This document shows, piece by piece, positions 4,451 through 41,856 of a DNA stretch of 64,000 nucleotides. A program made the translations under genes and the position numbers. This DNA comes from a virus. Location: positions 48,375 through 112,374 of the IMG/VR virus record IMGVR_UViG_3300037140_000076; one strand, given 5' to 3'. Numbering within the stretch: position 1 is the first letter of the stretch; the number at the start of each line of letters is the position of its first letter. The notes beneath the pieces are model-generated. The model made no database searches. It saw nothing but the letters and a program-made list of their open reading frames with translations, and was not told the DNA's origin.

Positions 4451-6414
4451 TAGAACAATTTTAAATTCTGTGAATGTGGATCAATCGCGTCTATAATTTT
4501 TCTACAAGATTGAGTATAATATTTATAATTTATGTTATATTCCTCCATTGGTTTATCCTGGAATATATTAAAGTAAGTTGTGTTCCACCCCTTCTCAATC
4601 TCTACAGTTCTTCCAGCAAGCTTGGCTTCCATCTTATACTGCTTTTTAAGAGATTTAAATTCTTTGGATACATAATACCGAACTACGGTTTCGTTTATAA
4701 TATCTTTTTCAATCGTGTTGGTTTCAAAATCTACGTAATGTTCTACAAGATTAAAATCCTTTTTAACTTTCACCCCTCCACAGAAATCATAAATGTCCTT
4801 GCAGCTTTTTATGTAATCCTGAATAGGAACGTTGTTAACATAGAATGCTTCCAGGGCTTTGGGTATAACCAGGAAGGAGGGGTTCTTATGATATTCAAGT
4901 TCCTTGTCTTCCGGCTTCATTGAATATGCAAAGAGGCCCTTTCTCTTTACTTTTCCTTTTTCATCAACAGCAAGATAGTTATTAACGTCCATAATAACAA
5001 TCTTTTTATACATCTTATCTTCCAAAGCAAGTTTTGTATACACTTCCCACTTCTTCATACAGTCCTTAACGTTCTGTTCTTGTTCAACCGGATAACCAAT
5101 CGTAACTCCATCTGTATTTATCTGGTAAAAAACAACTCCTTTTACTTTTATGCTTAATACTTCAGCAAGCATCAAAAGAAGAAGCTGACCATTAACAGTA
5201 ATTGCAAACGTGTACTTCGGGTCATGTAAGTAATTATTAGGTTCCTTACTAAGCCCATAAGTTGCGTTAAGAATAATCTTAAATACCAAATTCTCAGGGT
5301 CTTCTTTTGGAATCTCCTGGCGCATCTTAAAAAGATTTTCATAAACGTCACAAAAGACCTCTGAAAGATGTTCGGGATATAATCTGTTTTTAATACCCAA
5401 GTTGGGATAGAAGGAAGTTACATCAATATCTTTAATCTTCCAGGTCTCTGTGCTGTTGTATACCCCAGGCTTTGTACATCCATGTATACCGCCCAGGCCA
5501 GTAACTACTTCCTGGAGGTTGTGAAACTTGAATTCCTTTTTTACCTTCTTTAATTGCATATTGTTCTCTTCGAACTTGTATGGATTAAATTCCAGGTCCT
5601 CATAAAACTTTTTAACTGCGTTGAGGATGGGGTCCCTAAACTTAATATAGTCGAATAGGACATCTATTGTAGCAATCCTGCTGCGATATGTACGTTTCTC
5701 CTTCAAGTCCTTATAACGTATTCTCATTGCTTCAGAAAGGAACTTTCCAAAGATGTCACGGGCCATGCGTGGCTCTGAAGCATTCATAAGATTTAGTTCA
5801 TACTTTTCTGAGAGCTTAAATCTTAAATCAGTTTCAAATTTGTTAAGTTCAAATAATCTATGAGTTGCATGAACATCGTTTGCATCGTATATAACAATCT
5901 GAGTTACCTGTTCCTGAGAAGTTATTTCTTCAGAGTGATGGATCGGCATTGATTCAATGTTTGGAAATCTCATTGTGAATTCCAACCACTTTAATGAACA
6001 ACGTTTGCCCATTCCATCATAATGCTTCTGCTTATATATGTCAATGTGAGGGATGGTAAATTTCCATTCCGGGATAAGGTTCATCCATTTCTCTTCTCCT
6101 TCTTCAAGACCTATTATCCATTGAGCTTTTTCATGAAGTCTCCGGGCAATATCTTCTCCAGACCAGGATCTCAATTTTTTAAAATTGAACATCATGTATT
6201 CAAGTATCTGGCAGTCAAATCCGTTACAATTGAATCCAACCAGGATATAATAATGGTCCTTTAGCTTCCTTAAGAACTTCATCATCTCAAAGAAGTCATT
6301 CTGGAAGGGACTTATTACAAAATACTTTTCCTTCTTCGTGGTCCAATCCATGAAGTACGCTGTGAAACAGTTTGCAAGAGTTTCTAAATCATATATGGTA
6401 TAGCGTTCTTCCAT
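4450..6414 (-). CDS. polB: family B DNA polymerase with 3'-5' exonuclease
   Basis: Exo motifs YDLET and GFN..FD; polymerase motifs DIDVTSFYP, KIILNATYG, INTDG. Confidence 0.92.
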   Translation of the reverse strand: MEERYTIYDLETLANCFTAYFMDWTTKKEKYFVISPFQNDFFEMMKFLRKLKDHYYILVGFNCNGFDCQILEYMMFNFKKLRSWSGEDIARRLHEKAQWIIGLEEGEEKWMNLIPEWKFTIPHIDIYKQKHYDGMGKRCSLKWLEFTMRFPNIESMPIHHSEEITSQEQVTQIVIYDANDVHATHRLFELNKFETDLRFKLSEKYELNLMNASEPRMARDIFGKFLSEAMRIRYKDLKEKRTYRSRIATIDVLFDYIKFRDPILNAVKKFYEDLEFNPYKFEENNMQLKKVKKEFKFHNLQEVVTGLGGIHGCTKPGVYNSTETWKIKDIDVTSFYPNLGIKNRLYPEHLSEVFCDVYENLFKMRQEIPKEDPENLVFKIILNATYGLSKEPNNYLHDPKYTFAITVNGQLLLLMLAEVLSIKVKGVVFYQINTDGVTIGYPVEQEQNVKDCMKKWEVYTKLALEDKMYKKIVIMDVNNYLAVDEKGKVKRKGLFAYSMKPEDKELEYHKNPSFLVIPKALEAFYVNNVPIQDYIKSCKDIYDFCGGVKVKKDFNLVEHYVDFETNTIEKDIINETVVRYYVSKEFKSLKKQYKMEAKLAGRTVEIEKGWNTTYFNIFQDKPMEEYNINYKYYTQSCRKIIDAIDPHSQNLKLF

Positions 6415-11948: not shown

Positions 11949-11973
11949 AATACTTATTTCTAAGGTTTGTCAG

Positions 11974-12331
11974 TGGACTAGTCGGAATTCGAATCCGAGT
12001 CTTCAATACAAAAAATCTTACTTTTCTTTATAGGTTTAGGATAACGATTTAATCTTACTACCGTTCCAAAAGAATTTTCCTACCCTCCACCACTCGGTTT
12101 AGGTCCGAGAACCATGCTACACCAGCCATTTTCTGTTTCAAGGTATGACTACCCATGCATCAAGCTAATTCCAGTTCTTCACTGAAAACCGAAGCGAGTA
12201 TCGCTTCTCCTTCTGCAATACGTTCAGCTTTAGACTTTACGTTTGTTTGTTGCATATTTATTAAGGATGTTATATACTGCATCCACCTAAAATAAAACCT
12301 TTCAATACTGAATCAATAGCCTTTCTAGCCC
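11974..12331 (-). ncRNA. ssrA: tmRNA
   Basis: 5' GGGCUAG pairs with 3' CUAGUCC-A, including the G3:U70 Ala identity pair; T-arm UUCGAAU near the 3' end; 358 nt; internal ORF 12255-12160 MQQTNVKSKAERIAEGEAILASVFSEELELA*. Confidence 0.9.
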
Positions 12332-26474: not shown

Positions 26475-26543
26475 ACAAAACTCAGTGATAATTATCATTG
26501 GATTTAGTGATAAAAATAAAATTATAACAAAATTTTGTTATAA
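26470..26543. promoter_or_regulatory. three copies of the 22-bp palindromic operator TTAT(A/C)ACAAAATTTTGT(T/G)ATAA
   Basis: Perfect palindrome at 26522-26543 just upstream of -33 TTTG; degenerate copies at 26470 and 26492. Confidence 0.75.
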
Positions 26544-26773: not shown

Positions 26774-26851
26774 ATGCAACAATTTACAATGATAGTGGAT
26801 AATAGAATTAATGCCGGAGGCGAAAATCGTCTTTCAGGGATTCTATTGTAA
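26774..26851 (+). CDS. leader peptide 1 of tRNA array 1 (MQQFTMIVDNRINAGGENRLSGILL)
   Basis: A-rich TIR; codons 6-17 match all ten downstream tRNAs; overlaps the antiterminator strand. Confidence 0.8.
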   Translation: MQQFTMIVDNRINAGGENRLSGILL

Positions 26852-26876
26852 CATCATTAATAATATGTTAAACCTT

Positions 26877-26913
26877 TAGAACCCTGGATAATAAATCCAG
26901 GGTTTTTTATTTT
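26877..26913 (+). terminator. attenuator terminator 1
   Basis: AACCCTGGAT/ATCCAGGGTT stem plus T-run, directly before tRNA-Val. Confidence 0.85.
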
Positions 26914-27640: not shown

Positions 27641-28437
27641 CATTCACAGAAGAAGGGCATTCGTATGAGTCAATTCCAGCCGTTTCCTGGACTTCTGTGA
27701 CTAAATTAATAGAAAGCTACTGCAATCCTTTTGATGAGGAGGATCAAGCTCTGAGGAGTTCACAGAATATGAATTCAAAATGGTTTGGGATGGACCCAGT
27801 GGAGATTATCAAACTCTGGAAGGCTGAAAACCTTCGTTCCACTGATGCCGGAACCTGGGTCCACAACAAATGGGAAAAAAATGTTAGCTCTTTAAAGCAC
27901 AAAGAGTGGGAAGGAAAGAAATTAAAAGTTTTTCCTGGAAAATGGGAAGGAGAAACTAAAATTGCACCGGCCCAGGAACTTGAAGAAGGGGTTTACCCTG
28001 AACATATTATATATAATGAAAATCTTCAGGTGTGTGGACAGGCTGATATTGTTAATGTTAGGGATGGTTTTGTAGATGTAATTGATTATAAGACTAGTAA
28101 GGAGATTGAGGACCACTCTTATGGATTCAAGTATGGAAATGCGAGTATGATGTTGGAACCGGTGAACCATTTAGAGGATTGCAACCTTTCTCATTATGTT
28201 CTTCAGCTTGGTATCTATATGAGGCTCATCCTGTTAAAGAATCCGGCTCTGAAACCTGGTAAACTGATCCTCATTCATGTAAAAATGGATATTAATGAGC
28301 TTGATCAATATGGATTTCCTATCCTAAAAAGGACAAAAGAAAACGGATATAAAATTAAAAGAACAAAAAATTATAATATAAAATACATTGAGAATGAAGT
28401 TCGTAGTGTATTAAAAGATCATTATTTAAAATTGTAG
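27631..28437 (+). CDS. PD-(D/E)XK exonuclease
   Basis: SVTKLI, GTWVH, PEH...CGQAD...IDYKT, YVLQLGIY. Confidence 0.8.
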   Translation: MFLTFTEEGHSYESIPAVSWTSVTKLIESYCNPFDEEDQALRSSQNMNSKWFGMDPVEIIKLWKAENLRSTDAGTWVHNKWEKNVSSLKHKEWEGKKLKVFPGKWEGETKIAPAQELEEGVYPEHIIYNENLQVCGQADIVNVRDGFVDVIDYKTSKEIEDHSYGFKYGNASMMLEPVNHLEDCNLSHYVLQLGIYMRLILLKNPALKPGKLILIHVKMDINELDQYGFPILKRTKENGYKIKRTKNYNIKYIENEVRSVLKDHYLKL

Positions 28438-28582
28438 GGTGGCGAAATTGGCAGACGCAACCGCTTGTCTCGCGGTCGTGGATAAGGAAATAGATAGTAG
28501 ATAGACGGTTGACCAGCAATGAATTAACTTCTTTTGTCTCCTGTTGAATCCCCACTTAATGGTTCGAATCCATTTTCTACAG
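28433..28582 (+). ncRNA. tRNA-like RNA with ~81-nt variable region (loop centre GTC)
   Basis: Acceptor TGTAGGG/TTCTACA, Leu-type D loop, ACCGC-TTGTCTC-GCGGT, T arm AATGG-TTCGAAT-CCATT. Confidence 0.7.
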
Positions 28583-28702
28583 CAATTGATCAGTATGTTG
28601 CAGATAGAATCTGATCTGGCCCTACGCACTGCAAAGCGTTGAGGGAGCGCGTCCGGGATAAGTAGACCTGGTAAGACTACGCTAGGAAAAAGTCTTTTAT
28701 AT

Positions 28703-29519: not shown

Positions 29520-29590
29520 GGGCCAGATCCCGAAGGCAGGGCATCTCGCTTGCACCGAGAATGAAGCGGGTTCGATTCCCCATGTGTCCA
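29520..29590 (+). tRNA. tRNA-Ala(TGC), divergent
   Basis: TCTCG-CT-TGC-AC-CGAGA; G3:U70 present; mismatches in acceptor and T stems. Confidence 0.7.
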
Positions 29591-29631
29591 CTTTTTTCCC
29601 AAATTTGGAAATGTGAAAAATTTTCACTATA

Positions 29632-30990: not shown

Positions 30991-31684
30991 TACAATAGTT
31001 CTTACTGCAATATATCATGAGTTTTGGGGAACAGAACAGTTTAGAAAATCTGTTGAGAGAGTAGGTCTGGATGTTTATAATGTATTTCCTGAAAACACCC
31101 CATATAGAGGAAACGGTTTTATTTATCAATACTTTTACAAAGCCTTTTTAGATCTTAAAGATAAATATAAAACAGTTATTTATTCGGATGGAGCAGATAC
31201 AGTTTTTCAAAAAGCATTTGTACCACCAACTGATAGAATAATTTATTCTGTTGAAAAAGCAATATGGCCTCCTGCCGAACGCTTCCCACATCTTAAAGTT
31301 CTTTATGATAACTATTATAACAAACACTGGCGTAGAAATGATTGGCCTTGGAAATATTTGAATGGGGGAAACTGGTGTGGTCCCATTCATCTATTAATTG
31401 AATGGTATGAACGATACGGATTGAAAGATTTGACAGGAGATATAAATGGTCAGAGAGAGCAAGCCGAAGCTTTTATGAAAGCAGATGCAGATGGTTTTCC
31501 AATTAAGTTCGATCATAATTGCGAATATTTTCAGACAACAGGTTTTGAAAATCAAGGAGATTTCAGTTTAGCGGAAGATGGAAAATCAATTATAAATAAT
31601 TTAACAGGGACGATTCCTTGCGTTCTTCATGGGAACGGGCGAACTCCGATGAATGCCATATATAATAGATATAACGTACAATAA
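30980..31684 (+). CDS. PLOD/LH3-type glycosyltransferase
   Basis: YSDGADT, YSVEKAIWP, KYLNGGNWCG, EYFQ, LHGNG. Confidence 0.75.
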   Translation: MINDTIVLTAIYHEFWGTEQFRKSVERVGLDVYNVFPENTPYRGNGFIYQYFYKAFLDLKDKYKTVIYSDGADTVFQKAFVPPTDRIIYSVEKAIWPPAERFPHLKVLYDNYYNKHWRRNDWPWKYLNGGNWCGPIHLLIEWYERYGLKDLTGDINGQREQAEAFMKADADGFPIKFDHNCEYFQTTGFENQGDFSLAEDGKSIINNLTGTIPCVLHGNGRTPMNAIYNRYNVQ

Positions 31685-31685
31685 A

Positions 31686-32741
31686 ATGACGAACAAAGAA
31701 AAAGCAAAACGACAAAGAGACCGAAGAAAAACCTATTCATTGTCAAAAAGAAAAAAAATAGCAAAGCAGGTGAAGGCGTATGCCGAAGCAAATAAAGAAA
31801 GACTTTCTTTTTTAAAAGCAGAAATGTATAGAATAAATAGAGAGTATATTTTACACTTCAAAGCAACACATCCTTGTGTAATTTGTGGACAGACTGATCC
31901 TTTCGTTTTAGACTTTGACCATTTAGATCCTTCTAAAAAGGAAGCAACGGTTGCAAATATGTTAGGTAGAACAGCTTCTCTAGAAAAAATAAAAAAAGAG
32001 ATAGCCAAATGCCAGATATTGTGTGCTAATTGTCATAGAAGAAAACATTTTTATGAAAAGAACAAATACAATTTTAAACAAAATATTGTTTTAATCGGAG
32101 GCGGTAATCATGTTCAGTACTGTATTGATATAATTAAAAAACAAAACAAATACAATATTGTCGGTATCATTGATTCAGTTAAAGATATTGGAGAAATTGT
32201 ATACGATTATCCTGTCATAGGAAGACAAAAAAATATTGTTGAACTTTCAAAACAATATGGGTTTGAAAGTGGTATAATTACTGTTGGAGATAATTGGGCA
32301 AGATATAAAATATATGGAGATATTATTGAGGCTTATCCATCATTTATGTTTGTAAACGCAATTCATCCTTCAGTATTAATAGGCAATAATGTAAAGATAG
32401 GTAAAGGAGTAATAGCAATGGCGGGTGTAATATTTAATCCTGGAGCAAATATTGGAGATTTTACTTTCTTTGCAACAGGTGCGCAAGTAGAACACGATTG
32501 TATAATAGAACATTTTGCAAGTGTATCAGCGGGGTCTATTCTTGGTGGTCATGTTCATATAAAAGAGTTTGCTGCTATTACTCTAGGGGTAACAATAATT
32601 GATCGTCTTACTATTGGATGGAATACAGTAATTGGATCAGGGTCTCTTGTAACAAAAGATATAGATGATAATGTGTTGGCATATGGAAGCCCTGCGAAAG
32701 TAATAAGAATAAGACAACAAGGAGAAAGATTTTTAAAATAA
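31686..32741 (+). CDS. HNH nuclease fused in-frame to a NeuD/PglD-like sugar acetyltransferase
   Basis: N-terminal CVICG..LDFDH..CANCHRRK; C-terminal IVLIGGGNH, hexapeptide repeats, AYGSPAKVIR. Confidence 0.8.
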   Translation: MTNKEKAKRQRDRRKTYSLSKRKKIAKQVKAYAEANKERLSFLKAEMYRINREYILHFKATHPCVICGQTDPFVLDFDHLDPSKKEATVANMLGRTASLEKIKKEIAKCQILCANCHRRKHFYEKNKYNFKQNIVLIGGGNHVQYCIDIIKKQNKYNIVGIIDSVKDIGEIVYDYPVIGRQKNIVELSKQYGFESGIITVGDNWARYKIYGDIIEAYPSFMFVNAIHPSVLIGNNVKIGKGVIAMAGVIFNPGANIGDFTFFATGAQVEHDCIIEHFASVSAGSILGGHVHIKEFAAITLGVTIIDRLTIGWNTVIGSGSLVTKDIDDNVLAYGSPAKVIRIRQQGERFLK

Positions 32742-33832: not shown

Positions 33833-33901
33833 ATGAAACATATCAATTCATATTATTCACTGAGTCTACTCTTATCGTCTTACGATACGGACCTGGGATA
33901 A
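33833..33901 (+). CDS. leader peptide 2 of tRNA array 2 (MKHINSYYSLSLLLSSYDTDLG)
   Basis: 12 consecutive Ser/Tyr/Leu codons upstream of Leu/Ser/Tyr tRNAs. Confidence 0.85.
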   Translation: MKHINSYYSLSLLLSSYDTDLG

Positions 33902-33936
33902 TATTGAATTAACCGAACTGATTCGGAAAAGTTATT

Positions 33937-33970
33937 ACCCTGGGATTTTTATCCTGGGGTTTTTTGTTTT
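33937..33970 (+). terminator. attenuator terminator 2
   Basis: ACCCTGGGAT/ATCCTGGGGT plus T-run abutting tRNA-Leu. Confidence 0.85.
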
Positions 33971-34073: not shown

Positions 34074-34153
34074 ACCTTCGTGACTTATACGAAATGGCAC
34101 AGTTACCGGTCTTAGAAACCGGGTCCTTGTGGGTTCGACTCCCACCGAAGGTA
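34074..34153 (+). tRNA. tRNA-Leu(TAG), enlarged D loop, short variable arm
   Basis: CCGGT-CT-TAG-AA-ACCGG. Confidence 0.82.
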
Positions 34154-34190
34154 CAATGTTTCCCTTATTAATGAGGTAAACAATTTATAA

Positions 34191-34270
34191 CCCTCTGTGG
34201 CTTATAGAAATAGGTACACTTAACCGACTTAAAATCGGAGCTTGTCATGGTTCGAATCCATGCAGGGGGA
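34191..34270 (+). tRNA. tRNA-Leu(TAA), enlarged D loop, short variable arm
   Basis: CCGA-CT-TAA-AA-TCGG. Confidence 0.8.
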
Positions 34271-34275
34271 CATAC

Positions 34276-34362
34276 GGAAGGCCCCAGTTGACTGAGGTAC
34301 ACGGTCCTGAACACCGCTAGGAGGCTAATACCCTTGTAAGAGTTGGACTCTCTTGCTTTCCG
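34276..34362 (+). tRNA. tRNA-Ser(TGA)
   Basis: CGGT-CC-TGA-AC-ACCG; long V arm; G73. Confidence 0.8.
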
Positions 34363-34480
34363 CTTTATATCTTTTAACATATAAAATCAGTAATATATTA
34401 CCGATTATATCTAATAACGTATAATAAGGTAGAATATTTTGCAACAATCGGCAATTTATTACCGATTTTGCCGAAAGTTT

Positions 34481-34564
34481 GGAAAGTTAATTAGCAAGAG
34501 CTAACCCTCCCCGCTAAGGAGTGGGACCGGGAAACTGGTTGTGGTTCGTGTCCACAACTTTCCG
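34481..34564 (+). tRNA. tRNA-Ser(GCT)
   Basis: CTCC-CC-GCT-AA-GGAG; long V arm; G73. Confidence 0.82.
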
Positions 34565-34612
34565 CAAGAGGAAACATTTGGAAGTTTCCTCTTTATTTCG
34601 TATGTTTGTAAA

Positions 34613-35059
34613 ATGAAAAAGATATGTTCAAAATGCAATATTGAAAAAGAAGTACAAGATTTCAATAAACGCACAAACAGTAAAGACGGATATGATCCAA
34701 GATGTAGAACTTGTACAAAAGAACGAGATGTTTTAAGATATACTAAAAATCCCAAACTTTTTAAAGAAAGGGCAAAAGTTAAAAACACTTTTATAAGAGA
34801 TAGAAACAGACAATTTTTAATTGAATATTTAATTGATAAATCATGTATTGATTGTGGAGAAACCGATGCTGTTGTATTGGAGTTCGATCATATAGAACCT
34901 TCAACAAAAATTGATTGTATTTCAGAAATGATTCCACGATCAAGTATTGAAAATATTAAAACTGAATTAAATAAATGTGAAATAAGATGTGCAAATTGTC
35001 ATAGAAGAAAAACAGCTAAACAATTTGGCTGGAAAAGAAAACACCTGGAATTATGTTAA
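34613..35059 (+). CDS. HNH endonuclease
   Basis: KICSKC..CRTC; CIDCGE...LEFDH...CANCHRRKT; start MKKI 4 nt after TATGTTTG. Confidence 0.85.
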   Translation: MKKICSKCNIEKEVQDFNKRTNSKDGYDPRCRTCTKERDVLRYTKNPKLFKERAKVKNTFIRDRNRQFLIEYLIDKSCIDCGETDAVVLEFDHIEPSTKIDCISEMIPRSSIENIKTELNKCEIRCANCHRRKTAKQFGWKRKHLELC

Positions 35060-35158: not shown

Positions 35159-35213
35159 TTATAACTGAATTTTGTTATAAATTTGGAAATTTGAAAAAGT
35201 ATTATTAAGTTTG
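35159..35213 (+). promoter_or_regulatory. 22-bp palindromic operator plus promoter of array 3 (-33 TTTG, -7 TAAGTTTG)
   Basis: TTATAACTGAATTTTGTTATAA followed by ATTTGG ... TAAGTTTG. Confidence 0.72.
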
Positions 35214-35224
35214 CAGTTAAGATT

Positions 35225-35317
35225 ATGAAACAGACTATCAACACGCGATTTTTTTGGCATCAACCGACCCCTCAAGGTCCAAGGGCTAAAGTTATGCGTG
35301 ATACAGATATAGGTTAA
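35225..35317 (+). CDS. leader peptide 3 of tRNA array 3 (MKQTINTRFFWHQPTPQGPRAKVMRDTDIG)
   Basis: Codons 7-19 TRFFWHQPTPQGP cover all seven amino acids of the downstream tRNAs. Confidence 0.85.
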   Translation: MKQTINTRFFWHQPTPQGPRAKVMRDTDIG

Positions 35318-35345
35318 ATAATCTCTTTTCTGCTTGCAACTTTTC

Positions 35346-35381
35346 AACCCTTGATTTTTCTAAACCGAGGGTTTTTTATTT
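35346..35381 (+). terminator. attenuator terminator 3
   Basis: AACCCTTGATTT/AAACCGAGGGTT plus T-run abutting tRNA-Pro. Confidence 0.82.
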
Positions 35382-35457
35382 CTAGTAATGGAGGAGTCCG
35401 GCCATCCTCGCGTGCCCTGGAAGCATGAGAACCCAGGTTCAAATCCTGGTTACTAGA
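35382..35457 (+). tRNA. tRNA-Pro(TGG)
   Basis: CGTGC-CC-TGG-AA-GCATG. Confidence 0.85.
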
Positions 35458-35462
35458 CAAAT

Positions 35463-35534
35463 TCCTCTTAAGCTTTAATGGTGAAGCTCCAGTTTTGTAA
35501 ACTGGTGAATGGGGATCGTTACCTCAAAGAGGAT
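35463..35534 (+). tRNA. tRNA-Thr(TGT)
   Basis: CCAGT-TT-TGT-AA-ACTGG. Confidence 0.85.
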
Positions 35535-35618
35535 CGAAGCCGGTTACCAAAATGTAAAAAAGCCGCCAGAACGTGTCTGGTTACTTGTTAAGACAAGTTG
35601 TAAAAAAGTTTGGGTTAT

Positions 35619-35693
35619 GTGTCTTGGGCAGGTCTGGTGACATTGCATCCGTTTGAAGAACGGACTAACAAGGTTCGATTCCTTGAGGATACG
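35619..35693 (+). tRNA. tRNA-Phe(GAA)
   Basis: TCCGT-TT-GAA-GA-ACGGA. Confidence 0.82.
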
Positions 35694-35698
35694 CTTAT

Positions 35699-35770
35699 TC
35701 CTGGATCGTATAACGTGTAGTACAGCCGTCTCTGACACGGTTAGCAATTGTTCGACTCAGTTTCCGGGAA
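35699..35770 (+). tRNA. tRNA-Gln(CTG)
   Basis: GCCGT-CT-CTG-AC-ACGGT. Confidence 0.85.
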
Positions 35771-35775
35771 CTTAA

Positions 35776-35846
35776 ACCCCTTTAGCATAAAGGTAATGCT
35801 GGTGGCCTTGACCCACCAGAAGTTCGGTCGGTACGAGCAGGGGGTT
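35776..35846 (+). tRNA. tRNA-Gln(TTG)
   Basis: GGTGG-CC-TTG-AC-CCACC; atypical T loop. Confidence 0.78.
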
Positions 35847-35847
35847 C

Positions 35848-35918
35848 TGTGAATCTAGTTCAATGGTAGAACGGCTGGCTGTGAACCAGGCAATTAGGGT
35901 TCGATCCCCGGTTTCACA
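35848..35918 (+). tRNA. tRNA-His(GTG)
   Basis: CTGG-CT-GTG-AA-CCAG. Confidence 0.78.
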
Positions 35919-35964
35919 CAACGCATGAATTTTTAATAAAAATTCATGCAAAATATTAACATAA

Positions 35965-36036
35965 CCTCCTTTCGTTCAACGAATAGGACCTCTGGCAACG
36001 AACCAGAAAATAAAGGTTTGATTCCTTTAGGGAGGT
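35965..36036 (+). tRNA. tRNA-Arg(ACG)
   Basis: TCTGG-CA-ACG-AA-CCAGA. Confidence 0.8.
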
Positions 36037-36041
36037 CAATT

Positions 36042-36110
36042 ACGTGCCAGGCTAAGGCAGCCAAGCAAACTCCAAATCTGTAGGAGATAGTTCGATTCTA
36101 TCGGTGCGTG
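36042..36110 (+). tRNA. tRNA-Trp(CCA)
   Basis: Loop CT-CCA-AA; GATAG-TTCGATT-CTATC; G73. Confidence 0.8.
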
Positions 36111-36591
36111 CAAATTATAACAAAAAGCAATTATAATTACTTTTTGTGATAATATTCACACAAAATTTTGTGATAAATGTTGGAAGTGTCAAAAGTATTG
36201 TTTTACTTTGCACCCAACTTTCACCAGTAAAGGACACGCCACCACGAAAAAACAATGATATGAAGTGGCGCAACTACGTCTTGGCTTTTTTTGGGGGAAC
36301 CTACGGAGGGGGGCCTCACCCCTCTCATATTATTGATTTATAATACGTTAAATGATTACCGGGTAATTTACTGGGCCTGGTAAAGCTTATAATTTGGTTA
36401 TGTGCTTTGAATTACATATATTTACAGAGGTAAAAAGCACAAAAAATATAAAAAGAGATTCAAGGGGATCATTTAAGATATTACCATCACAAAAATTCCT
36501 ATCTGGTTATAATCAAAAAACGTAATCTGCGTCCATTTAAAACGTTTAAGCAGATGGCAGTGAATTAGGAAACACTGTTGCCCGGTGGTAT

Positions 36592-39753: not shown

Positions 39754-41856
39754 ATGAGTATAATAACCAGTCCGGAGTTTTTTATTAATATAAAAAAGAT
39801 ACCGGATAAAGCTTCCAAAGAATATCTGCCCTTCTTCAGGGCAGAAATGAATAAAGTAAAACAGGGTGTAACCATTGCTGGAGTAAGAATTCCAGGATGG
39901 TTATATTGGCATATAAACCACTGGGTAATTGATATAGATGTTCCAGTACAAGGCACAAATATTAATTATGTTGAGCGTAGACCATCACATCCTTTTTTAA
40001 GGGATAATGATTGGATTATTGCAGAACATATTGAAAGAGCAGAAAGTTTAAAAAAAGGTGTATTACTTCTTGGTACTCGTCAGCTTGGTAAAAGCGAAAT
40101 AGGAGCTTCTTATAACGGGAGAAGAGGTATTGCTTTTGAAAATAGTCAAAATGTTATTGCTGGTCTTTCTGATCCGGATTTAAAACTTCTTCTTGGTAAG
40201 TTGGATAGAGGGTTTACAAATCTTCATCCCTATTTTAAACCAATAAAAATAATAAACGATCCTAAGAAAGAAATTATTCTTGGATATAAAGACCCCCAGG
40301 GAGAAAGAGTTAAATATTCTGAATTCCTAATTCGAAATTTAGATTCAGGAAAGAATACTGAAAACTTAGCGGGTCCTACTACTTCTTCACTTACTTTGGA
40401 TGAGTGTGGTAAAGGAGATTTCCTTGAAGCCTTCATTGCTGCTAAACCTGCTCTTGAAACCGCTTATGGTTGGAGAGGTATGCCTTTATTTATAGGGACC
40501 TCTGGTAGCTTTGATAAGGCTGAGGATCTTCAAAGGTTCCGGGAAAATCTTGACACTTATAATTTTATTGAAGTTGAACTTAAGGATGAAAAAAAACAGG
40601 ATATATATTTTATTCCAGGTTGGATGTCATCTCGTGCGAAAAGAAAAAAAATAAGATTATCTACTTATAAAAAAGTACCCAAAGGAAGCGAACTTGATAC
40701 TATTGCTATTCATGTTGTAGAAAACCCTGAAGAAGAAATACAAAGAATTTTAGATTATAGAGAGTCATTAAAAGTTGCTGGAGAAATAACATTGATGAAG
40801 AAAGAGACAATGTATTATCCTTTAAATGAAGAGGAATTATTTTTAATTGATGATAGTGATAATATATTTTCTGATGTAAAAGAAATATGTAAAGCTCATT
40901 TACTTTATTTGGAAACAATTGAAGTGAGTGAAGAATATGGATGGATGACAAGAGACGAAAATGGTAAACCAAAATTCGTTCCAACTAAGAATGCTTTTCC
41001 TATTAAAGATTTTCCTGCTGGAGAACATGAAGATAAAGATGCCCCTATTATTATATGGTCCCATCCTATGGAAGGCCAAGAATTCGGGATTTTGCATGTA
41101 GGTGGAATTGACCCTTATAACCAGGATGAATCATTTTATTCCCCTTCCCTGGGAACCCTATATATTTATCGTAGGACATATGATCCTTTAAAAGGCAATC
41201 ATCAAGAATCATTTGTTGCTTCATATTCTGCTCGTACAAAGACTATATCTAAATGGAGGGAGCAAGTAAGACTTCTTTTAGAATATTACGGAGCTACTGC
41301 TTTACCGGAAAATGAAGAGCCGGGTCTTATTCGTTGGTTTGATGAAAAACATATTGGACATTATCTTGAAGACGGTCTTGATCTAGCAAAGGAAATAAAC
41401 CCCAATACCACCAGTAATAGAAATAAAGGATTATCAGCTACTACAGCAAATATAAGATATGGAAATGGTCTTTTAAAATCTCATATTAACGAAGATCTGG
41501 TTATGGGCCAGGACCCTTTAAGCGGGGAGAATATAATAAAGAAAGGAGTAATCCGGATAAAGGATAAGGTTTTATTAAAAGAGGTAATTGCTTATACCCC
41601 TGCCATGAGCATTAAAAGTAGGGCAGGGACCTCTTCAAATGCAAGGACTAAAAAGAAAGCTACCAACGTTGACCGGATTGTAGGGGCAAGACATGCTCTG
41701 ATCCTGGCAAAATTAAAAGATAAATATTTTCCCCTTGCTAAGATAAAGAACCCCCTCTCTACAAATAAGCCTGAAAAAAAGGCTATTAAAAGCCCTTTTA
41801 CAGGTATAAACAGTCCTTTCGGATCTCGAAGATTTCCCTTCGGTGGAAAATTATAA
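39754..41856 (+). CDS. terL: terminase large subunit
   Basis: GTRQLGKS, LDECGK, IGTSG, nuclease VGGIDPY; upstream of portal. Confidence 0.88.
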   Translation: MSIITSPEFFINIKKIPDKASKEYLPFFRAEMNKVKQGVTIAGVRIPGWLYWHINHWVIDIDVPVQGTNINYVERRPSHPFLRDNDWIIAEHIERAESLKKGVLLLGTRQLGKSEIGASYNGRRGIAFENSQNVIAGLSDPDLKLLLGKLDRGFTNLHPYFKPIKIINDPKKEIILGYKDPQGERVKYSEFLIRNLDSGKNTENLAGPTTSSLTLDECGKGDFLEAFIAAKPALETAYGWRGMPLFIGTSGSFDKAEDLQRFRENLDTYNFIEVELKDEKKQDIYFIPGWMSSRAKRKKIRLSTYKKVPKGSELDTIAIHVVENPEEEIQRILDYRESLKVAGEITLMKKETMYYPLNEEELFLIDDSDNIFSDVKEICKAHLLYLETIEVSEEYGWMTRDENGKPKFVPTKNAFPIKDFPAGEHEDKDAPIIIWSHPMEGQEFGILHVGGIDPYNQDESFYSPSLGTLYIYRRTYDPLKGNHQESFVASYSARTKTISKWREQVRLLLEYYGATALPENEEPGLIRWFDEKHIGHYLEDGLDLAKEINPNTTSNRNKGLSATTANIRYGNGLLKSHINEDLVMGQDPLSGENIIKKGVIRIKDKVLLKEVIAYTPAMSIKSRAGTSSNARTKKKATNVDRIVGARHALILAKLKDKYFPLAKIKNPLSTNKPEKKAIKSPFTGINSPFGSRRFPFGGKL

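Follow-up and report, generated by a model that had tools for sequence, protein, structure and literature searches.

A leader ORF matched to its tRNA array: a probable ribosome-mediated attenuator in a phage genome

Known attenuators and the phage tRNA locus

Leader-peptide attenuators are known in Enterobacteria from the trp, his, phe and leu operons, and from the multivalent thr (Thr/Ile) and ilvGMEDA (Ile/Leu/Val) leaders, while the pheST attenuator, with its pheM leader, and the T-box riboswitches exert antitermination control on aminoacyl-tRNA synthetase genes. The tRNA genes carried by phages are usually explained by codon-usage compensation or by escape from tRNA-cleaving defences; their role and their control are a long-standing question. 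An inducible tRNA array has been described in Anabaena sp. PCC 7120, where the trn operon, comprising 26 genes, is silent and becomes induced under translational stress, and where the repressor TrcR acts at the promoter, on direct repeats that cover its -10 box and the transcription start (PMC8421152, PMC10272220); the 2021 paper on this operon mentions neither an attenuator nor a leader peptide nor a terminator (PMC8421152, PMC10272220). A full-text literature search found no account of leader-peptide (trp-operon-style) attenuation of tRNA genes. The pheV gene of E. coli, considered as a possible attenuated tRNA gene, was set aside, having only a promoter upstream and neither a leader ORF nor a terminator.

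The window analysed here, 64,000 nucleotides long, is part of a 112-kb IMG/VR phage record that is about 93% complete. Three tRNA arrays, all on the plus strand, are found within 26.7-36.1 kb of the window, just upstream of the genes for the terminase large subunit (39754-41856, phrog_6681), the portal and the major head proteins. As to the host, the promoters are of the Bacteroidota consensus type, but the nearest relative in culture has a cyanobacterium as its recorded host. The array with the order Pro-Thr-Phe-Gln-Gln-His-Arg-Trp is preceded by a leader ORF that begins at position 35225, and this unit (att3) is likely to be a ribosome-mediated attenuator of the trp/his type, which would sense the supply of charged tRNA and gate the eight genes behind it. 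The proposal is based on computational evidence: on the anatomy of the sequence and its statistical significance, on predicted alternative folds and on co-variation in relatives.

As in the enterobacterial attenuators, the unit comprises a predicted promoter, a short ORF with a regulatory codon run, a predicted protector (1:2) and an antiterminator (2:3) helix and an intrinsic terminator (3:4), and a ribosome stalled in the run is predicted to select the antiterminator. The enterobacterial systems, however, control biosynthetic enzymes, whereas the phage unit would control tRNA genes, and its product would feed back on decoding rather than on amino-acid supply. Moreover, the enterobacterial leaders contain a run of one to three amino acids, while the phage leader offers one or two codons each for seven, corresponding to eight tRNAs; the unit also differs in being phage-borne and in starting at a nearly leaderless ATG without a Shine-Dalgarno sequence. 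With pheST and the T-boxes it would share the antitermination control of translation-apparatus genes by tRNA status, but T-boxes bind uncharged tRNA directly and without an ORF, whereas the phage unit is an ORF with 13 different codons. A T-box riboswitch was ruled out, since no Rfam T-box match is obtained even at E <= 1; both at gathering thresholds and at E <= 1, Rfam matches only tRNAs in and around the element. What the unit would share with the Anabaena trn operon is a set of accessory tRNA genes whose expression is turned on by impaired translation; in Anabaena, unlike in the phage unit, control is at the promoter and there is no codon-to-array matching.

If the attenuator reading is correct, the phage would gauge decoding speed codon by codon and top up only the block of tRNAs that is short. 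Attenuation would then be extended from amino-acid and synthetase genes to tRNA genes, and the grouping of tRNA genes into arrays would be explained.

The leader ORF and its predicted folds

The features of the unit, together with those of its sister units, are collected in Table 1. A short ORF with its own start and stop codons lies downstream of a predicted promoter, whose last base is 11 nt before the leader ATG; the presumed transcription start is placed from the promoter consensus. In the initial annotation codons 7-19 had been read as ACG CGA TTT TTT TGG CAT CAA CCG ACC CCT CAA GGT CCA, which is exact, and the statement that 12 of these 13 codons belong to Pro/Thr/Phe/Gln/His/Arg/Trp was borne out, the exception being GGT at codon 18; CAG is indeed codon 3. 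The tRNA-Trp gene (36042-36111) is absent from the default ARAGORN output and was recovered at a relaxed threshold, which completes the eight tRNAs of seven amino acids that had been claimed downstream. The array is also uninterrupted, as previously described, with neither an ORF nor an HNH gene inside it.

Table 1. Positions of the att3 unit, its sister leaders and newly placed array-2 tRNA genes in the window
Feature	Position	Strand	Basis or remark
Sister leader att1	ORF 26774-26851; unit 26774-26913	+	Precedes Val-Arg-Asn...Met-Gly-Glu-Asp-Ile-Ile-Ala; scores 13/13
Sister leader att2	ORF 33833-33901; unit 33833-33970	+	Precedes Leu x3, Ser x2, Tyr; scores 12/12
tRNA-Leu(TAG)	34083-34154	+	Missed by default ARAGORN
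tRNA-Leu(TAA)	34191-34271	+	Identity settled by alignment
Two long-arm Ser-like tRNAs	About 34277-34365 and 34481-34565	+	Missed by default ARAGORN
Inverted repeat TTATAAC-N8-GTTATAA, just upstream of promoter	35159-35180	.	Direct reading
Predicted promoter, Bacteroidota consensus type: TTTG (35182-35185), 20-nt spacer, TAAGTTTG (35206-35213)	35182-35213	+	Consensus
Leader ORF, 30 codons plus TAA	35225-35317 (ATG 35225, TAA 35315-35317)	+	ORF listing
CAG, codon 3, covers tRNA-Gln(CTG)	35231-35233	+	Sequence
Region 1, predicted protector 5' strand (Arg-Phe-Phe-Trp-His codons)	35242-35261	+	MFE fold of untranslated leader
Codon run, codons 7-19, amino acids of downstream tRNAs	35243-35281	+	Codon scoring
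Region 2, codons 19-25, predicted antiterminator 5' strand or region 1 partner	35280-35300	+	Fold models, RNAduplex
Region 3, predicted antiterminator 3' strand; last 8 nt (35346-35353) are the terminator 5' arm	35336-35353	+	Fold models
Intrinsic terminator: hairpin 35346-35373, then T-run to 35381	35346-35381	+	Folding
tRNA array Pro(TGG), Thr(TGT), Phe(GAA), Gln(CTG), Gln(TTG), His(GTG), Arg(ACG), Trp(CCA)	35382-36111	+	ARAGORN, Rfam tRNA matches

The leader codons are enriched for the amino acids of the regulated tRNAs. The match was evaluated against chance by scoring all ORFs of 15-45 codons, in the six frames of the whole genome, for their best 13-codon window with respect to the seven-amino-acid set, which accounts for 25% of the residues in long ORFs. 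Among the 708 ATG ORFs (1,465 when GTG and TTG starts are included), the 35225 leader ranks first with 12/13, and the runner-up scores 10 among ATG ORFs and 11 with all start codons. Each of the eight tRNAs reads at least one codon under standard wobble within leader codons 3-15; ACC and CCT require extended U34 wobble, and GGT has no partner tRNA in the array.

The putative intrinsic terminator is located where it had been predicted, after the leader ORF and ahead of the tRNA genes, and is formed by a stem pairing 35346-35353 with 35366-35373 (-9.9 kcal/mol, 12-nt loop). The hairpin ends 8 nt before tRNA-Pro, which starts at 35382, and this distance leaves no room for a separate promoter. In the absence of a ribosome, region 1 pairs with 35283-35300 in the minimum free energy fold, and the terminator is then free. 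The antiterminator proposed earlier, between 35280-35297 and 35336-35353, corresponds to the helix that ViennaRNA predicts once the upstream part is masked; its core consists of CAAGGG (35280-35285) with CCCTTG (35348-35353) and of AAAGTT..TGC with GCA.ACTTT. Its overlap with the terminator 5' arm also stands, bases 35346-35353 being shared, and the two helices are mutually exclusive in the predicted folds. The best complement of the terminator arm found by RNAduplex falls at codons 19-21 of the leader (-10.2 kcal/mol).

Ribosome stalling was modelled by masking a standard footprint that begins 15 nt upstream of the first base of the A-site codon and reaches 12 nt past it. For the full leader at equilibrium, the predicted terminator probability, which is 0.76 without a ribosome, drops to at most 0.01 when the ribosome stalls at codons 4-11; it amounts to 0.24-0.48 at codons 3, 12 and 13 and to at least 0.64 from codon 14. 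A second model considered the nascent RNA, in which the terminator 3' arm has not yet emerged, and computed the sequestration of the 5' arm: its probability is 0.75 for stalls at codons 3-15, 0.38 at codon 16, at most 0.03 at codons 17-23, and 0.11 without a ribosome. A stall is thus placed as in an attenuator at codons 3-15 of the fold models, but not at codons 16-19 (CCT CAA GGT CCA), which lie inside or under the antiterminator 5' arm and would be unproductive. The attenuator reading of the initial annotation is therefore retained for its anatomy, co-variation and frame specificity, while these last codons of the run have to be removed from the productive stall sites.

Dinucleotide shuffles of the 35225 leader equal the observed sequestration of the arm in 1/60 cases, with a shuffle mean of 0.26, which in other units reaches up to 0.6; random leaders fairly often sequester a free GC-rich arm, so that the antiterminator is only moderately significant for each unit. 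Just after the antiterminator core, a ...GTGAT stretch (35294-35302; [MV]-[RC]-D) is nearly invariant in orthologues that otherwise differ; it falls outside the account given by the fold model, and it could represent a pause signal or an effect of the peptide.

Related phages and sister units

On the basis of a terminase homologue alignment, 149 loci were collected, 69 of them viral and 80 metagenomic; of the 64-77% TerL relatives from Logan, only L077 and L078 are included, via the metagenome scan. Thirty-five units, each consisting of a mini-ORF, a hairpin with a T-run and a first tRNA, were found in 16 phages, one of them cultured, whose terminases are 35-100% identical; a detection of units blind to the score recovered the same ones from the 149 loci. 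An intact ORF of 19-36 codons occupies the equivalent place in every relative. Hairpin energies lie between -8 and -21 kcal/mol. In all but one of the 24 units measured, the hairpin is separated from the first tRNA by 4-13 nt, so that transcription of the tRNAs is only possible through it. The layout TTTG-20 nt-TAnnTTTG is present 4-27 nt before the ATG in 13/24 units of relatives. The protector helix is absent in several relatives, in which sequestration without a ribosome is 0.6-0.86. In the closest relative, L003, which is 98.5% identical overall, the leaders are identical and therefore uninformative for the comparison.

A tblastn search of GenBank phages identified the Leptolyngbya phage Lbo-JY46 (L157, PP438436.1), with a TerL 41% identical and the same synteny; a nucleotide search of the same phages returned only two short tRNA-like matches. 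Lbo-JY46 has the same three units, with unannotated leader ORFs before its tRNA arrays (1839-1949, 5391-5471 and 6120-6185). Its promoters match the TTTG...TAnnTTTG consensus typical of Bacteroidota, while its recorded host is a cyanobacterium; this could mean that a phage factor recognises this type of promoter, or else that the recorded host should be re-examined. A literature search on Lbo-JY46 found no paper.

Leader codons 2-21 contain 200 of the 209 array amino acids of the 35 units from 16 phages. For the best 12-codon window, the mean score is 10.7 when the leader is read in the frame of the ORF; the two alternative frames give 4.8 and 5.1, and the best reverse frame gives 6.0. The array-matching signal is confined to the reading frame of the ORF. 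When arrays were re-dealt among leaders, the observed match was reached by 0/20,000 permutations, whether the initial collection of 24 units or just its 11 Pro-containing members were used, p-values that overstate independence, since the units are phylogenetically related. Trp is present in the leaders of all nine units with a tRNA-Trp and in none of the 15 without it. At the codon level, 296 of the 455 leader codons at positions 2-20 belong to a codon box served by a tRNA of the array, and 231 do so under strict wobble.

The leaders also differ among phages in parallel with the composition of the arrays. In L014, L018, L080 and L065 the Pro array includes Asp and Asn tRNAs, and its leader has D and N; in L014, L018 and L065 the Arg tRNA is absent from this array and R is absent from the codon run, and the array-1 leaders of L014 and L018 have lost D and N from their runs. 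Array 1 of L009 and Lbo-JY46 has Lys and Cys tRNAs at its start and a leader that has gained K and C, while in L023 and L032 a Pro-Gln-His-Arg-Leu-(Ser)-Tyr array is preceded by a leader made of those residues. The leader signature predicts the downstream tRNAs, including those missed by gene finders: tRNAs named by the leader were found only at a relaxed ARAGORN threshold in the case of Trp and Ser in L023, and of Ala in L014, L018 and L032.

Co-variation extends to the RNA elements. In the orthologues of the 35225 unit the terminator hairpin is retained by compensatory changes, and changes of the terminator arm are accompanied by changes of the antiterminator site: the pair is CAAGGG/CCCTTG here, and GGGTC/GACCC, GAGAGGG/CCCTCTC, AGGGCT/AGCCCT or CTGGGCTT/AAGCCCAG in orthologues. 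The best complement of the terminator arm falls at codons 16-24 in 27 of 30 units, with energies from -9 to -23.5 kcal/mol, and exchanging the arm of a unit for a foreign one gives equally good binding in 12% of swaps (median 7%). The last stall that still sequesters the arm correlates in position with where the codon run ends (Spearman 0.89 over 24 units), with a mean offset of -1.5 codons; the offset of the 35225 unit, -5 codons, is the largest but one among the 24.

Both sister leaders in the window are top or tied top for their own arrays in the genome-wide scoring of short ORFs. Scores of a leader against a foreign array are 0-5, except for the att3 leader against the array 1 set (10/13), a value due to the fact that this set covers half of all residues. 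At full equilibrium, the terminator probability of att1 shows no dip for a stalled ribosome, and its model thus depends on the order of co-transcriptional folding. An Rfam match of att1 to the 'greA leader' (36.7 bits, against a cut-off of 60) was rejected; it most likely reflects no more than the general likeness between leaders followed by a terminator. The leaders at 33833 and 35225 have common first codons (MK.) and the same C-terminal D-T-D-[IL]-G, suggesting a duplication with a rewritten middle. The ATG at 33833 is only 4 nt after the -7 box, and its mRNA is therefore probably leaderless.

Array 2 starts with Leu(CAA), Leu(TAG) and Leu(TAA), followed by two Ser tRNAs and Tyr. Four tRNA genes within 34083-34565 escape ARAGORN at its default setting. 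The low-threshold ARAGORN calls 'Stop', 'Pyl', 'Gly' and 'Ser(cga)' were discarded as misassigned, the alignment showing tRNA-Leu(TAA). Both Ser-like tRNAs apparently have C at position 33 of the anticodon loop, which is unusual, and the second one overlaps the beginning of an HNH-like ORF (34541-35059). In array 1, all tRNAs named by the leader are accounted for once a weak tRNA-Ala(TGC) at 29521-29591 is included. Within 28433-28700, a tRNA-like gene (28433-28583) is interrupted by about 70 nt that may be an intron, and is followed by an unassigned RNA-like sequence of about 110 nt and then by tRNA-Met.

Proposed mechanism and rival explanations

We infer that the leader is translated, where transcription starts, how termination and read-through alternate and what the physiological trigger is. 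Transcription would proceed from the predicted promoter, and a ribosome would start on the nearly leaderless ATG. If all leader codons are decoded fast, the ribosome would cover region 2 and reach the stop codon; with region 2 covered, the terminator would form and the polymerase would halt 1-8 nt before tRNA-Pro. If a charged tRNA is scarce, the ribosome would wait between about codons 3 and 15, where Gln, Thr, Arg, Phe, Phe, Trp, His, Gln, Pro and Thr codons would act as sensors; region 1 would be held open and region 2 left free to pair with region 3, capturing the terminator 5' arm and allowing read-through into the eight tRNA genes. When the ribosome is absent, regions 1 and 2 would pair and termination would be the default. 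The tRNAs of the array are thus probably made only while ribosomes decode the leader codons slowly, and each array would be under its own negative feedback, in which slow decoding leads to synthesis of the tRNA set and the restored supply turns it off.

Candidates for the natural trigger are a codon-usage mismatch, loss of host tRNAs during infection, a tRNA-cleaving defence and amino-acid shortage. It can be proposed, only tentatively, that the three codon-indexed attenuators form a counter-defence circuit, in which each array is a replacement set, turned on specifically once host anticodon nucleases or shut-off have depleted any one of its tRNAs, and the leader acts as an easily rewritable 'index'. 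Were this the case, phages could rewire the sensor through the leader each time a tRNA gene is acquired, lost or transferred from one array to another.

The same switch could in principle respond to a different signal, the leader sensing amino-acid starvation or the general translation capacity and its match to the array being a by-product of the amino acids relevant to the phage. Classical attenuators answer to charging, a stalled ribosome cannot distinguish a missing tRNA from missing charging, and the fold models fit equally; this explanation is nevertheless considered unlikely, since the composition of the leader tracks the tRNA genes behind each terminator to the level of the codon box, with AGA accompanying Arg(TCT) arrays and CGA accompanying Arg(ACG) arrays, and the Leu and Ser boxes behaving likewise. 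Leaders change, moreover, as tRNA genes move between arrays; as extra tRNA is no cure for amino-acid starvation, such a coupling would have no obvious purpose if starvation were the signal.

Somewhat less probable still is a translated ORF followed by an unregulated hairpin, which would be a processing or stability element or a fixed leaky terminator, or whose output would be protection from Rho or RNase. A complement of the unit's own arm directly after each codon run, co-varying with the arm and shifting its position with the length of the run, is not needed by a fixed terminator or a processing site, even though the terminator is modest, as its energy and loop indicate, and the protector helix is missing in some relatives. 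That the locus is an ordinary small protein gene with a terminator, or an untranslated RNA element, whose resemblance to the tRNA set is coincidental, appears very improbable: all three units of the genome have the top score among its 708-1,465 short ORFs, and the signal is frame-specific and co-varies with the arrays across 16 phages. AT-rich phage DNA is rich in short ORFs and hairpins, and the 35225 element has no protein or RNA family match, points that would agree with a coincidence; a minus-strand ORF at 35159-35347 was ruled out, however, as it is not preserved in the orthologues. The preferred interpretation remains a ribosome-mediated attenuator matched to its own array.

A further layer of control is possible. 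The inverted repeat upstream of the att3 promoter has similar TTATAAC-type copies at 26519-26543, 36112-36136 and 36152-36176; the repeat is conserved and adjoins the -33 box of several tRNA-region promoters, and, judging from its sequence, it is a putative operator for a DNA-binding regulator. The TTATAAC-type palindrome, used as a search pattern in viral contigs, retrieved only unrelated loci without tRNAs.

The region 36112-36330, directly after tRNA-Trp, contains two of the TTATAAC-type palindromes, a stretch that resembles a promoter, and an RNA of about 130 nt that is structured, poor in ORFs and ends in a G-rich hairpin (36306-36326). This structured sequence has no Rfam match and may be a candidate small RNA; a tRNA-like fold at 36257-36332 is called by ARAGORN only at a very low threshold. 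Elsewhere in the window, the phage encodes a tmRNA on the minus strand (11973-12331), with an unusual tag of 26 residues. Between arrays 1 and 2, a block of glycosyltransferase and PhyH genes includes a 362-aa protein (31653-32741) in which an HNH motif is joined to a PglD-like acetyltransferase.
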